Assembly (NCBI GenBank): GCA_038231455.1
Contig: JBBRLI010000031.1
Location: 1 to 32,589 of the forward strand
Length of the DNA: 32,589 nt
Source of the DNA: Vulcanimicrobiales bacterium
Lineage (GTDB): Bacteria; Vulcanimicrobiota; Vulcanimicrobiia; Vulcanimicrobiales; Vulcanimicrobiaceae
Direction: 5' to 3'
In this document: piece by piece, positions 3,001 to 9,000 of the stretch
Layout of the letters: every line of letters starts with the position of its first letter
Numbering within the stretch: the first letter of the stretch is position 1
Made by a program: the position numbers

Positions 3001-6000
3001 CGCTCACCAGTTCCAATCCCGTACCGAGCGCGCAGTTCACCACGGACCTCCTAGCCGCGCAGCAAAAAGCCCAATCGAACCTGAACTATTTCAAGGTTTA
3101 TCCGGTGGTAACGATCACGCTCGCCGCGAAGCTGTAGCGGATGGAACGCTGGAAGCATGATGGTGTCCGGGTCATCGCCGCGTGCGACGTCGACCCGAAC
3201 ACGCCCCAAACGACGGGGATGTCCCGCGCGGCGGCGATCACGACCGCTCGCGTCGGCGCCGAAAAGCTCTGGGCCGGGACCGTCACGATCGAACCCAACG
3301 CCAAAACCGGCGCGCATCATCACGGCGATCTCGAGAGCGTGATCTACGTGGTGAAAGGCCGCGCGCGTATGCGCTGGGGCGAGCGACTTGAATTCATTGC
3401 CGAAGCAGGCCCAGGCGACTTCATCTTCGTCCCGCCGTTCGTGCCGCATCAAGAAATCAACGCGAGCGCCGGCGAGCCGCTCGAATGCGTGCTCGTGCGC
3501 AGCGGGCAAGAGCCGATCGTGGTCAACCTCGACATTCCGGCCGTCGAGCAACCCGAGTCGGTGCTCTGGAAAGATGATATCCACCGCTAGGATGCTTGAG
3601 CGCTAGAACGCGGCGCTCGTTCGGACCGCCCACGCGGCATCAGGCTGCAGCGGCGCGATTCATATAGCGTACGGCGAGCATGTGCGGAACGGTGACGGCA
3701 AAAGCGAATCCCACGATCGCAGTCGAGAATGACAACGAACGGGGAATCTCGACGGCAAAGAAGACCCCCAGCGCTAGTGCACCCAGCGTCATCGGGAGCG
3801 ATCGCAGCGCGAAACTTTGCATCGCTACTCGGTTTCGCGCGAACGAAGCGTTGACGTCGAGGCCGTAAACTTCGGCGAGCCGCAAGAGATGCCGTGCTCC
3901 ATGCCAGCACCCGAAATAGAGCAAAAAAGCCGACAATGGCGGTGCGACCACAAACCCGATGAACGCGACCGGCAGTTCGAGCACGTACCAAAGCGGCAAG
4001 CGCGCGGCGCGCGCGCGTACCGCGCGGTAGCTAGCCGCGAGGACGACCACGATTCCGACGATCGAGAGCAGCGCCACGCGCACGGCGAACGGAACGACCG
4101 GCACGCTTGCGACAGCGAAACCGATCGATTGTGGAACGAGCGAGAGCATCTCGTGCGGATGGGCGAGGAACGGTACGGCGATCGGCAGTGCGCCGAATCC
4201 TAGCATGCGCAAGCGCGCGAACCGCGGGAGATCCTCGCCGACATAGCGGGCAGCGAAGGTGAGCTCGCCCGACCCGAAATGAACGATCGATATCGCAATG
4301 AATGCGGCAAAGAGCGGCAGCGGAAACACGATGAACGCGGTGAATGCACATGCGACCACCGCTGCATATCCAAACACGATACGTATCGTCGTTAGCTTCG
4401 ATGCGCCGTGTAAACGCTCGGCAAGCTCGTGGTCGAGCGCCCCGTGCGCGATGCCGAATGTCAGGGTCACGAGCAACCCGAGCCCAAGCGCCAAGCTGCT
4501 CGCGAGGTGCATCGGGAGAGCGCCTATGAGTGCCACGGCGAGTCCGAGCGGGCCGAGCCATCCGATCGCGTCAACGAGCCGCAAGATTACCAGTCCTCGT
4601 CGTTCCAACGGGGGCGACATCGCCCAGTCCCTCCAGCGCGCCGAGTACGCTTGCGACCAGCACCGGTAGCGTCTCCAGCGGACCCGCACGATCCATCATA
4701 AAGTTGGCTAGCCGATCGCCCTCGATGGTCGCGAAGAGCCGCCGAAACGCACGCGGCAGGAGCTTCGGCGCGCGGCGCGCCGCTTCGATGAGAAACGCAT
4801 CGCATGTCGGTGCGACGCTGCCGAACGATTGTGTCGACGGCACCGTCGTGCGCGCGAAGGCATCCGCGATGCGGGCTGTTTGCGCTTGCACGCGGTGAAA
4901 CGTGTATCCGCTGCCCGGTCGTGCGCAGCCACCGCGGAGGCCGATCGGGATGACGCGCGCCGTCCGCTTCGGTAGCGTAAGGCCCGAACTCATCGGAATA
5001 CTGCCGACTTCACGATAGCCGGCGGCTGGTTGCGCCGCTCCGATCCGCCGTGTGATGTACGCATCGAGCTCGTAGTCGAGCCGTGCGCGGGAAAGTGGGC
5101 GGCGCGCAAAATAGGTATTTTCGATCAGCGCTTCACGCGGTCCGAACGGCAAGACATAAAAGAAGTGGAACCCGTCGTCGGTATCGCGTTGCACGTCCAT
5201 GAGTGTCGCGGTAGTCGCGTCGAACGCATCGAAGTCGACGACGACCCGGCGCCCCGCGAAGCGTTGAACGATGTCGCTGCGCCCGACCATCTCGCGGCTC
5301 AGGCCACGGGCATCGAAGACGTGATCGGCGACGATCGTGCGATCCCGCGTCGAGATGACACAGGACCCAGCCGACTCGGCGATCGAGGTCACCGCTTCGC
5401 CCAGGAGCAGGTCGTAGCCCGAATCGGATATATGTGTTTGCGCTGCTGCGTAGAAGTCGCGACTCTTGATCGAGACGTAGGGAGCGCCCGCGCTCTGCTG
5501 CATGTACGCGCCGGAATCGTCACGGAGCTCCCAACGGTTCCATGTGCCGCTTGCCAGGCCCGCATCAGCGCCTGCATCGACATCCCAAAACGACCAGGTG
5601 CGATCGTCGACGAATGCCGGCTTGGCATCGATAATGACGATCGGGTCGGTCACCCCGCGGCGCGCAAATGCGCGCGCGAGGCTCAGGCCGGCTAGGCCGG
5701 CACCGACGATGGCGAAGCGATAGGACGATCGAACGTGAGTATCCATCGCTTCGCCGGTTCGACTACGACGCCGAGTTTGCGGACTTCAACCCACTAGTCG
5801 GCTCGTTCTCCGACTTGCGGATCGCGATGTTGTAGATGTAGATTCCGAAGGCAGCCTTGGCGACGATATCGGCCACCGTATAACCGATTTGCACGAGCGT
5901 CGCCGCTGCTCCGCCGGTGAATCCGATCATCGGGAAGATGAAGACGATCGGGTAGAAGCACCACGCCAAGATCGTTATCCAACGCGCAGTGCTCACCATT

Positions 6001-9000
6001 CCGCGCACGTTTTCGGGTTGTGACGCGATGGACGACTTCAACCCGAAGAAGAGCTCGATGACGATCCACGTGAATGGAATCATCGCGAGGACCCAAAAGA
6101 TCCAGCGCGTCGCAATATCGGCGGAGACTTCCCCCGGGTATCCGAAGCCGACCATGATTACGGCAAGAAGCCCGAGCCGGACCGACTTGGAGACTGTTTC
6201 TTTCTGCGACAAGCGCATGACGAGAATCAGCTCGAGCAAGAGCAACGGAACCGTGAGCAGCCAATCGACGTAGCGGTATGCATCGTTGAAGGCGACGCCT
6301 GTTGGCTTGACCACGCCGCTAATGACGGTAAATGCGGCAACCCAGCTATCGAAAATACGGAAGTAGTGGTAGCAGGCGACGAGCGTCACAAGTGCGGTGA
6401 CCGTGACTGCTGTGCGATATGGCTTGGCAACTTGCGCGACGCCGAAGAAAAAGAAGATCGTCGCTGCGCCCATGACGGCAATCGTCAATGAGAACGCATT
6501 GTAGATGAGGGTGTATTCCCCTAGGGAGATTTCTGGCATGAAATTTCCGTTCTTAGTATGTGGCCCTATGTTTGGGCGGTATGAGATACGACGAGGAGAG
6601 CGTCGATCCAGAATCGACGTGAGAATCTCCGCTTATGTGAAGAAGAATCCTTGCGAGCCGCCTGAAAGCGACAACGCAACGCGTCAGAATTAAATTGGCA
6701 ATTTTGCCACCATCGAGACGTGCAGCAGGTTAGACGCCACGAAAGTAAAAGTTGCAACGAGGCTGCGATATGCAGTCCGTTGTTGACGATGCTATGCCGC
6801 AAAGCGCGATGAAGGATTTCGCCGCGCCGAGTGCCGGTCCAGGAGGAGCGGTTATCGCGCACGGCGCTAACCTGCGCGCGACGCGCGCCGGAGCGCGCGC
6901 CGCGCGTAGCGTTGGACGGCTAAAGCCGGGTTCTCATTCCGGGCGTTCTCGGGACCGAAATCATCGTAAAAGCGCGTTCACGCCGCCGATCGACTTCTAC
7001 TGATGCGCGTCATCGAAACGCATGTCGTTGCCTTGGAGCGCGTCGGCAACGGCGGCAATCTCGTTCGAAAGCGGACGGTCTGCCGCGAGATGTGCCGTGT
7101 ACGTGCGGATCCATGCGACAAAACGTCGCGATTGCGGTGCAAAGTCGATCGCATCCGCACCGCGCTCTTCGATCAGCTCGACGGCTTGCGCGAGGATCAT
7201 GCCTTCGATCGCTAAGACGAGCCAGAGCAGATCGAGCAGACGCGAGGTCTTGCGCGCCGCGATCGTGCCCATCGGCACGACGTCTTGGTTGTTTGCGTTC
7301 GTCGGGATCGATTGGATGGAGGCCGGTATCGCCAAACTGCGCATTTCAGCGACGACCGCCGAAGCGGTGACCTGCGCGCCCATAAAACCACTGTTGAGGC
7401 CGCTTGGCGACGCATGCAGGAAGGCCGGGAGACCATGGTTTTGTTGCCCATCCGTTAGCCGCGCAATCGCACGCTCGGCATGCACGGCTACATTGATGAC
7501 GCTGAGCATCAAAGCATCCGACGCCGATCCAACATGTTGGCCGAAGAAATTTCCGCCGTGCAGCACCGCGTCGTCCTCGGCGAAGACCAGCGGATTGTCC
7601 GTCGCTGCATTGAGCTCGATCGTGACGATGCCATTGTGAAAAGCCAGCACGTCGAATGCAGCTCCGAATATCTGCGGAAGACAGCGGATCGAATACGGGT
7701 CTTGCGGCAACTCGCGGGCGGAGGTCCCGATGAACTCGTCGGGGTCAAGGTACGCCGGCGGCTGAACCGACGGTCGGATTCGGCGGCTGCCATCAAGCCA
7801 AATGGCGAGTAGCCGGTGTGCCAACTGCTGGCCGACATGCGGGCGCGCCAGGCCGAATCGCGCATCGAAAGCTTCGCCATGCGCACCCAGACACTCGGCG
7901 TACATTGCGCCGAACCGTAGCGCGACATGGAGCGCGCGCTCGGCGCGGATACCGTTGACGGCGGCAATACCGGTCATCGCCGCCGTGCCGTTGACCAGCG
8001 CAAGCCCGTCTTTTGCGCCGAGTTCGACGGGCACTAAACCGGCGCGTGCCAACGCCTCTGCAGCCGCAAGGCGATCGCCGCCGAAGGTCGCCTCCCCTTC
8101 ACCGATAAGCAGCAAGCCTAGATGCGCTAGCGGCGTCAGATCGCCGCTAGCGCCGACGGTCCCCATCTCCGGAACGACCGGGAGCACGTTGCGATTGAGG
8201 CATTCGAGCAGTAAGGTAAATGTCGGTCGGCTCATCGCAGAATGTCCGCGCACGAGGTTGGCGATGCGCGCGATCATCATGGCGCGCGTAAGCGTCGGCG
8301 ACAGCGGCGCGCCGACGCCGGTCGCCAAATGGTAGAGCAGATTGCGTTGCAGCCGGTGCGCCATATCCGGCCGTACGTCGTATCGCGCTTCCGGTCCGTA
8401 TCCGGTCGTGACGCCGTACACGCGGCGGCGTTCGGCGATGAAGCGCGTAAGAAGCGCTTCGCTCGCTGCCATGCGCACATAGGCTTCGCTCGACGCATCG
8501 ACGCGCAATCCGTCAACGGCGATCGCCCAAACGTCGTCGAGTCCAATCGACGAGTCAAGCTCGATGCTCGTCATCATGCGCAGAGCCACGCGTACAACGG
8601 CGGCGCGATCGAGGAAAGTGACTCGTCCATGCCAGCTGACTTCAACAGCAAAACGTCGTGAACTTCAACGCACGCCGATTGTCAGAGAAATGTTCGTTTC
8701 GATCTGCAAGTCCGAGGAGTCATTGTCTCACGCGTGGCGCGCGCGCAGCGCACGTGGGGAGCGGGTCGCAAGCGTTTGCCTCTCGTGTCCACTCGGCACG
8801 CGGCATGAGCGGCCGAACGACAACAGCGGCGGCCCGGGATGCATTTCATCAACACCTGCCGCCCAATGGCCCGGAGCGGGCCGACGCCTCGTGTGTCGGG
8901 AGCCGTTTAGCGAGCACTCGCTGCGGGCAGAGTTTCGAGGATACTGTTCGCACGGAGGGGGTCCTATGGAGCAAATTCTCGCCTGTCCCGTTTGCATTCA

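Follow-up and report, generated by a model that had tools for sequence, protein, structure and literature searches.

The window analysed here spans 32,589 nucleotides of contig C31 (JBBRLI010000031.1) from the Vulcanimicrobiales assembly GCA_038231455.1. It carries a rhodopsin operon and the following features.

1..720, plus strand: cbbX (RuBisCO activase), 3' part; TIGR02880 match of 427 bits on the partial gene
3601..9474, no strand assigned: variable block of 5.9 kb (blh, crtY, opsin, and lyase), missing from the syntenic position in the congeneric genome G234
3640..4620, minus strand: Brp/Blh beta-carotene 15,15'-dioxygenase, ~326 aa; PF15461 128 bits, TIGR03753 142 bits
4571..5746, minus strand: CrtY-like lycopene cyclase, 391 aa; PF05834 177 bits
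5763..6539, minus strand: xanthorhodopsin-family opsin, 258 aa; PF01036 129.6 bits
6731..6738, minus strand: GGCGTCT(A) motif, ~200 bases upstream of the opsin and kept in all five aligned upstream regions
6997..8574, minus strand: aromatic ammonia-lyase, part of the variable block, whose substrate-switch residue is His; best structure 2o6y, E 6e-121

Matches to PF01036, PF05834, PF15461, and TIGR03753 bore out the three open reading frames of the operon and their names. The first-pass annotation had named blh and crtY by eye. The TIGR03753 match of Blh is above the cut-off of 95, whereas CrtY, for all its PF05834 score, falls below both TIGRFAM cut-offs (TIGR01790, 116 bits). Sixteen bases separate the opsin stop from the crtY start, and the start region of blh overlaps the end of crtY by 50 bases, with the blh start codon (ATG at 4620) inferred from the G234 homologue. 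Residues H59, H114, H240, and H244 of Blh are invariant among eight aligned homologues. Such a compact opsin-crtY arrangement is common elsewhere: of 44 outside loci with a crtY match, 17 have it within 500 bases of the opsin. The same genes had been reported for the congener, and G234 does carry an 88%-identical opsin-crtY-blh operon, at a site other than the one syntenic with the 5.9-kb block. In G235, the opsin and crtY are frameshifted pieces. The GC3 of the operon is 0.72-0.76, compared with 0.72 (sd 0.04) for the genome.

The GGCGTCT(A) motif may be a promoter element. It was rejected as a promoter motif common to the puf and bch genes, as 20 of its 74 matches in the genome lie outside called genes and none of these is on the puf/bch contig (C8). 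A sigma-70 scan returned one promoter-like site against 1.0 expected, and a terminator scan returned six terminator-like sites against 3.9 expected. The lyase is probably a tyrosine ammonia-lyase (TAL). Its best structure is R. sphaeroides TAL, where His89 marks TAL, and its substrate-switch motif differs from that of a second lyase on C20. No mobility gene was seen flanking the variable block, and a repeat search around it gave low-complexity GC matches only. The cbbX gene starts on C27, behind rbcL-rbcS, and C27 overlaps the window by 141 bases, which places the opsin operon ~4-7 kb from rbcL. The operon had been described as lying beside puf, bch, and RuBisCO genes; this is right for rbcL, but puf and bch are on another contig with no end overlap. 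A conserved opsin-cbb linkage was ruled out, as G234 has no opsin at this position and the neighbourhoods in G236, G237, and G302 are different.

Alignment of the opsin (H58, R89, D92, T96, L100, E103, D224, K228) to structures found the DTE motif (D92/T96/E103), H58, D224, and K228 intact. The pump residues align gap-free to characterised pumps and do not vary in any of the 84 xanthorhodopsins aligned. The DTE motif, helix-B His, and Schiff-base Lys proposed earlier all hold. The top structural matches were also as proposed, with Gloeobacter rhodopsin (6nwd, E 4.8e-69) followed by 9wfa, Salinibacter xanthorhodopsin (3ddl), and 7ytb (range 5e-69 to 2e-59), while proteorhodopsins scored 1e-28 or weaker. 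In a tree of the fetched loci, the opsin nests among xanthorhodopsins. The fenestration Gly that had been listed with the pump residues, however, is not there. Residue 149 is a Trp, which in a gap-free alignment pairs with Gly178 in 6nwd and Gly156 in 3ddl, and a Trp occupies this site in all five intact xanthorhodopsins of the family. Antenna binding through a fenestration Gly is ruled out by Trp149, as is the antenna-binding subgroup I type, which has Gly at Salinibacter position 156; according to bioRxiv 10.1101/2022.08.24.505090, a Trp or Phe at this site prevents the use of an antenna. The protein is therefore an antenna-less, subgroup-II-like xanthorhodopsin. It shares with subgroup II, as characterised in PMC3646047, the Trp at position 156, clustered retinal genes, and the lack of crtO in the cluster; this assignment is by residue and cluster, and the accompanying tree covers the loci collected here and no defining subgroup II protein. 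The same paper describes Octadecabacter subgroup II proteins as proton pumps with the DTE residues and reports Trp at site 156 in most of the subgroup. The cluster here is reduced by comparison to crtY and blh.

Profile matches confirmed the photosynthesis and Calvin-cycle genes that had been assigned to C8 and C27. On C8 are pufB, A, L, M, and C-like genes together with bchH, bchI/D-like, bchM, acsF, bchL, bchN, bchB, bchX, bchY, bchZ, bchF, bchC, bchG, and bchP, although several of these names are best matches below equivalog cut-offs. The bacteriochlorophyll a pathway is near-complete. C27, with its overlap to the window, carries form I rbcL and rbcS, cbbX, cbbR, and prk. The genome is 93.67% complete and 0.16% contaminated; among named opsins the closest, at 88%, belongs to a Vulcanimicrobiota MAG (L033), and the puf/bch order is that of Vulcanimicrobium alpinum. 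The rhodopsin operon, reaction centre, and RuBisCO genes reside in one genome, and the genomic potential for both phototrophies in one cell is well supported by its gene content. The first-pass description of dual phototrophs "with the Calvin cycle" is accurate as to genes. Form I RbcL is widespread in phototrophs of this family, being present in 25 of 30 reaction-centre genomes, and the cultured relative showed neither photolithoautotrophic growth nor a light response of cbbL (PMC9758169).

The genome also encodes polyprenyl synthases, crtB, crtY, and blh, with crtB and one CrtP-type desaturase adjoining the puf operon on C8. A profile search of this genome found no CrtI above cut-off and only this one CrtP/CrtQ-type desaturase. 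Lycopene would be made by these host carotenoid genes near puf. The sole non-phototroph of the phylum with a rhodopsin, G410 from outside the family, has a full crtE-crtI/B-crtY-blh set, whereas the rhodopsin-bearing phototrophs carry crtY alone, with or without blh, beside the opsin. This difference suggests that the phototroph cassette depends on host carotenoids. The earlier association of blh with rhodopsin genomes holds in part: no Blh-like gene was found in two of the nine, blh lies in the operon in only two of nine, and three phototrophs have Blh-like genes with no rhodopsin.

Across 348 family genomes, a reaction-centre match above cut-off was found in 30 (31 at E<=0.001, from which one 56-residue match below cut-off was dropped) and a rhodopsin in nine. 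All nine are among the 30, or 30% of phototrophs, and none is among the other 318; this revises the first counts (9 of 151, all within 28 with pufLM) and keeps their pattern. The nine comprise six xanthorhodopsins and three proteins with a DTG motif, in line with the earlier suspicion that three of them might belong to another subfamily, and eight of the nine frames are intact. The rhodopsin genomes are scattered over five of 18 phototrophic genera, and 21 reaction-centre genomes have no rhodopsin. Co-occurrence stands, but a single "lineage of dual phototrophs" does not, given scattered gains and two unrelated rhodopsin types. The two types imply at least two gains, probably three: the Trp-type xanthorhodopsin was probably gained twice (at least once) and the DTG-motif type at least once. 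As to a single origin for all family xanthorhodopsins, the free tree sets G302 apart, but a single clade was not rejected (AU p 0.20, 32 of 84 rows); the 87-row tree is a quick version. The nearest relatives from beyond the family share 58-70% identity and are spread over many phyla, and the cassette appears to be a horizontally gained, movable add-on.

We consider it likely that the operon, as a gained add-on, codes for an outward proton pump of the Trp-type (subgroup II-like) xanthorhodopsins, which would carry retinal only and probably absorb green light, and for the two final steps in making retinal. The host would be an aerobic anoxygenic phototroph that makes phytoene, and presumably lycopene, with the crtB and CrtP-type desaturase genes by the puf operon. 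CrtY would cyclise lycopene to beta-carotene, and Blh would cleave this with O2 to retinal, which would bind Lys228. In light, the Schiff base would hand a proton to Asp92, which is coupled to His58, and Glu103 would serve as the donor. The pump may add to a proton-motive force to which respiration and the type II reaction centre also contribute.

That the operon came from another organism through a binning or assembly artefact is scarcely credible. The assembly has 106 contigs, no overlap joins C31 to C8, and close opsins occur in many phyla, yet binning error is unlikely because the RuBisCO contig overlaps the window by 141 bases (C31 joins C27-C84-C10-C11-C1 through such overlaps) and because the single-contig genome G302 holds a xanthorhodopsin, pufLM, bchB, and rbcL. 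Run X1, which may be the source run, gives a single evenly covered contig of 8,098 bases, contigs of three other runs (X2, X3, and X9) bridge the cupin-blh junction, and the G234 operon also speaks against an artefact. A photoreceptor for phototaxis, not energy, is improbable as well. PMC9758169 discusses the rhodopsin of its phototactic strain alongside PYP, both as photoreceptor genes, and here the probable TAL gene (PYP chromophore) lies directly upstream in a genome with four PYP homologues. Set against this are the full DTE set with the donor Glu103 and the place of the opsin among xanthorhodopsins; we found no adjoining transducer gene, fused signalling tail, or cytoplasmic extension, and the neighbours are crtY and blh. 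Of the lyase neighbour, moreover, G234 retains just 74 bases, and in G236, G237, and G302 no lyase lies upstream of the opsin.

Even as a real pump, the protein may seldom or never work at the same time as the reaction centre. The two systems might alternate, or the cassette might be mostly silent, which would leave dual potential only; we regard this as a less probable but serious reading. According to PMC9897461, Sphingomonas AAP5 makes xanthorhodopsin only below 16 C in light and bacteriochlorophyll in the dark, and cultures of Tardiphaga strains that have the two systems expressed neither of them (PMC7701988). The upstream opsin motif that puf/bch promoters lack and the many phototrophs with no rhodopsin point the same way. 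On the other side, nearly all frames are intact, strains of three other runs keep the cassette at the same site, and AAP5 is described as holding both systems together under cold light-dark cycles. As for why rhodopsins fall only in reaction-centre genomes, the chances are about even that few gains, common lit habitats, and carotenoid supply account for this with no functional coupling. With 2-4 independent gains, the chance that all fall in phototrophs is 0.05-0.003 at genus level and 0.22-0.05 among the 64 genomes with a reaction centre or CrtP-type desaturase, and G410 has its rhodopsin with no reaction centre. Carotenoid supply as a full explanation is weakened by the 34 genomes (32 once the unpublished G310 and G221 are left out) that have a CrtP-type desaturase but neither reaction centre nor rhodopsin; the CrtI search covered this genome and five others. 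In the large genus g77, the sole rhodopsin is in one of its two phototrophs. With kinship and carotenoid supply allowed for, the association appears modest. A wider reading is improbable as a whole: two unrelated rhodopsin types would have been repeatedly gained, retained solely by cells already running a reaction centre, and supplied with lycopene by the photosynthetic carotenoid genes, and their extra proton-motive force would aid net Calvin-cycle CO2 fixation with reductant from inorganic donors.

The gene combination itself is known. V. alpinum WC8-2, of the same phylum, has pufBALMC, bch, pyp, cbbLS, and prk in one genome (PMC9758169). The first-pass annotation cited that paper for a photoreceptor mention, which is correct, but Supplementary Table S8 also lists xanthorhodopsin (WPS_12390) next to crtY (WPS_12400) under photosynthesis-related proteins, with puf, bch, and cbb genes. 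The paper regards the gene as possibly encoding a photoreceptor, has no blh in its list, and makes no mention of dual phototrophy. Glacial Tardiphaga (PMC7701988) likewise has a xanthorhodopsin operon, photosynthesis cluster, RuBisCO, and phosphoribulokinase, as genes alone in both cases, but it belongs to the Alphaproteobacteria and its operon is flanked by mobile elements and a tRNA, neither seen here. Sphingomonas glacialis AAP5 also combines xanthorhodopsin with a bacteriochlorophyll a type II photosystem in an aerobic bacterium; it differs in its nostoxanthin antenna, its lack of RuBisCO, and the proven activity of both systems (PMC9897461). Gloeobacter rhodopsin (6nwd) and Salinibacter xanthorhodopsin (3ddl) share all proton-path residues with the opsin but have the fenestration Gly and ketocarotenoid antennas. 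The main text of the dual-phototrophy survey does not mention Eremiobacterota, and its Table S3 names the phylum in the pufM sheet only. We did not find the family-wide picture in the literature searched, though Ihalainen 2024 (J Mol Biol) and the 2021 ISME J phylum survey may describe these rhodopsins.

Other bacteria are already known to have this pairing, and it appears in the gene list of a cultured relative, so our findings extend a known lifestyle. What may be new is the family-wide picture of two rhodopsin types confined to phototrophs, the core combination being already tabulated for the isolate. Physiological proof of dual phototrophy comes from a single Sphingomonas. Another phylum that has a cultured strain, RuBisCO, and a reaction centre of deep-branching type offers a ready test of how two light systems share work, and the existing isolate allows one to ask whether the rhodopsin helps fix CO2. 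According to PMC7842958, there is no known example of rhodopsin-assisted carbon fixation in an anoxygenic phototroph; if true here, it would be the first.

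Three genes stand in tandem on the minus strand of the window, spaced by a 16-base gap and then a 50-base overlap, and their profile matches bear out the retinal operon of the first-pass annotation:

5763-6539, minus strand: opsin (PF01036, 129.6 bits)
4571-5746, minus strand: lycopene cyclase, crtY (PF05834, 177 bits; below TIGRFAM cut-offs)
3640-4620, minus strand: Brp/Blh dioxygenase, blh (TIGR03753, 142 bits, cut-off 95)

This spacing makes a single transcript likely. The Blh histidines 59, 114, 240 and 244, of a kind that binds iron, were invariant in an alignment of eight homologues. 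Upstream of the opsin, a GGCGTCT(A) motif (6731-6738, minus strand), similar to an ECF sigma -10 element, is kept in the otherwise diverged promoters of five genomes. Position 6549, which precedes the opsin start by ten bases, is G in the window and A in all four runs compared, possibly a consensus error. Next to the opsin on its upstream side is a probable tyrosine ammonia-lyase gene (6997-8574, minus strand); such a copy was found only in this genome among the five searched; the genome also encodes four photoactive-yellow-protein homologues (contig positions C8:77894, C4:130891, C20:33441 and C1:31128). Ordinary genes of the window include thiC (15505-17364) and, at 20126-32528, those of glycogen and trehalose metabolism (debranching enzyme, GH63-like, CBM48 amylase, MalQ).

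The solved structures closest to the opsin were 6nwd (E 4.8e-69), 9wfa, 3ddl and 7ytb. The pump residues reported for it were found (Asp92, Thr96 and Glu103 of the DTE motif, His58 and Lys228) and, together with Arg89 and Asp224, are invariant in 84 of 84 aligned xanthorhodopsins. Leu100 occupies the site conferring green absorption in proteorhodopsins. The glycine described at the fenestration site was a misassignment: Trp149 stands there, opposite Gly178 of 6nwd and Gly156 of 3ddl. All five intact family xanthorhodopsins carry Trp at this site, as do 68 members of the whole aligned set, the other 16 having Gly. In the available parts of two reports, a Trp or Phe in this position keeps an antenna from binding (bioRxiv 10.1101/2022.08.24.505090), and most subgroup II xanthorhodopsins share the Trp of our opsin, the Octadecabacter members being proton pumps (PMC3646047).

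The operon is real, intact and correctly binned. The genome (3.71 Mb, 106 contigs, 93.67% complete, 0.16% contaminated) holds the reported photosynthesis and RuBisCO genes on two other contigs, several of the former named as best matches with scores below equivalog cut-offs:

C8: pufB, pufA, pufL, pufM and a cytochrome resembling PufC
C8: bchF, C, X, Y, Z, N, B, G, P, L, H, an I/D-like chelatase subunit, bchM and acsF
C27: rbcL (catalytic motif intact), rbcS, a CbbR-like regulator, prk and glpX

A 141-base overlap joins the reverse end of C27 to the start of the window. The cbbX gene therefore continues from C27 into window 1-720, and rbcL stops some 600 bases short of position 1; additional overlaps connect C27 to C84, C10, C11 and the largest contig. 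GC3 is 0.72-0.76 in the operon vs 0.72 (sd 0.04) in the genome. Positions 1-8098 lie on a single contig in run X1, which may be the source run. Three more runs, one from a glacier and two from sediment, have contigs that span the cupin-blh junction at 94-97% identity. A single-contig relative, G302, holds xanthorhodopsin, pufLM, bchB and rbcL together. Binning error is unlikely on these grounds, and we give an artefact almost no weight. The probable phylum assignment rests on an opsin 88% identical to that of a named Vulcanimicrobiota MAG (L033) and on a gene order like that of V. alpinum.

The operon had been placed beside puf, bch and RuBisCO genes. Contig-end overlaps gave no link between C8 and C31, the window's contig, and the operon's proximity to the cbb genes, although genuine, is not conserved. 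The congener G234 does carry opsin-crtY-blh, but on a different contig, where 74 bases of the upstream lyase survive; at the syntenic site its cupin gene (window ~3600) is followed within 40 bases by sequence matching window 9475, a 5.9-kb block being missing. Opsin neighbourhoods in genus g59 and G302 differ again, and neither flanking repeats nor mobility genes were apparent around the block. By these comparisons the cassette moves.

The operon lacks crtE, crtB and crtI. Two polyprenyl synthases are encoded elsewhere in the genome, and crtB and a CrtP-type desaturase gene lie some 5 kb upstream of pufB; no CrtI above cut-off and no second CrtP-type desaturase were found.

C8:60896-62278 (L120): CrtP-type phytoene desaturase, adjoining crtB

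Lycopene would come from these genes. The CrtP type occurs in 58 of 348 family genomes; CrtI takes its place in five other phototrophs tested. The three rhodopsin genomes of g59 are of this CrtI kind.

Two queries found rhodopsin in nine of the 348 genomes, and 30 had a reaction-centre match above cut-off (one weak match dropped). All nine, spread over five of 18 genera, fall within the 30, in line with the first-pass annotation's claim that rhodopsin occurs only where there is a reaction centre. Six are xanthorhodopsins (that of G235 frameshifted) and three (G036, G037, G300) are instead DTG-motif proteins at 25-27% identity, with 8xx8 as best structure:

L020:1140-1880, L021:8260-9000 and L022:9426-10145: DTG-motif rhodopsins of three phototrophs, bearing histidines where helix B starts

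Some DTG proteins are acid-active proton pumps, and another clade of them is reported as Na+/Li+ pumps (PMC10154332, in the part available). In G037 a lycopene cyclase follows the DTG gene, and in G300 the distance from the DTG gene to a prk gene is about 4 kb. A fully supported clade unites the xanthorhodopsins of G000 (this genome), G234, G236 and G237. The G302 protein falls with those of Acetobacterales, and the CrtY of that genome shows only 31% identity; a single family clade was not rejected (AU p 0.20). Rhodopsin was therefore gained at least twice, and probably three times. BchB and a PRK-family match occur in all nine rhodopsin genomes. Form I RbcL was found in eight (two partial; just a 36-residue fragment in G237); among all 30 phototrophs it occurs in 25. 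Blh-family genes accompany rhodopsin in seven of nine genomes, but lie inside the operon only in G000 and G234 and occur also in three of the phototrophs without rhodopsin (10 of 30 overall). The latter (L128, L129 and L133, in G041, G256 and G238) are divergent stand-alone genes with the four conserved histidines; G234 has a second stand-alone copy. Duplicated pufLM pairs were seen in G022:C1, G023:C2, G033:C5 and G162:C1, with up to seven matches in G162.

Taken at face value, rhodopsin and the reaction centre are strongly associated (Fisher p 8e-11), but kinship inflates the figure. Counted by independent gains, the probability of the pattern by chance is 0.05-0.003 across genera and 0.22-0.05 within the set of genomes that have a reaction centre or the CrtP-type gene. 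Whether the pattern is a matter of habitat and kinship is evenly balanced in our judgement; against it, none of 34 CrtP-positive non-phototrophs has a rhodopsin (p 7e-4 leaving out the unpublished G310 and G221). In a phylum sample, one of 104 genomes outside the family has one: G410, with a full crtE-crtI/B-crtY-blh cluster and no reaction centre.

A published table already gives this set of genes for a cultured relative, and other phyla are known to have it too. For V. alpinum, whose gene order matches ours, the available parts of PMC9758169 name the rhodopsin a possible photoreceptor, as had been noted, and its Supplementary Table S8 lists xanthorhodopsin (WPS_12390) and crtY (WPS_12400) alongside puf, bch, cbbLS and prk. 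Among the portions available of other sources, Tardiphaga has both light systems with RuBisCO and PRK, and 55 public genomes combine pufM and rhodopsin, Eremiobacterota appearing only in the pufM sheet (text parts and supplement searches of PMC7701988); rhodopsin occurred in all nine Greenland AAP MAGs and rbcL in one (PMC13702023). The parts available of PMC6664022, PMC9561532, PMC10711321, PMC12864036, PMC12654162, PMC7842958, PMC12826048 and PMC7762795 describe no Eremiobacterota rhodopsin. Searches on rhodopsin with phylum or genus names and on dual phototrophy returned no account of the family as dual phototrophs, a point on which subscription articles and supplements may bear. New here are the family-wide pattern, the apparently antenna-less opsin, the DTG proteins as a second type, and a short cassette that moves.

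A sensory role, in line with the photoreceptor naming, seems very improbable; the opsin has neither a transducer gene beside it nor a fused domain. That the two light systems alternate, or that the cassette is silent, has perhaps a minority chance. V. alpinum showed no photolithoautotrophic growth, and its cbbL was unaffected by light (PMC9758169, same parts); dual phototrophy is proven in AAP5, which, in the sections available, lacks RuBisCO (PMC9897461), whereas our genome has rbcL, rbcS and prk. Pumping, colour and expression are inferred, as would be any link to CO2 fixation. Most probably the opsin is a retinal-only outward proton pump that takes the lycopene for its retinal from the host, an aerobic anoxygenic phototroph, and augments the proton-motive force there.
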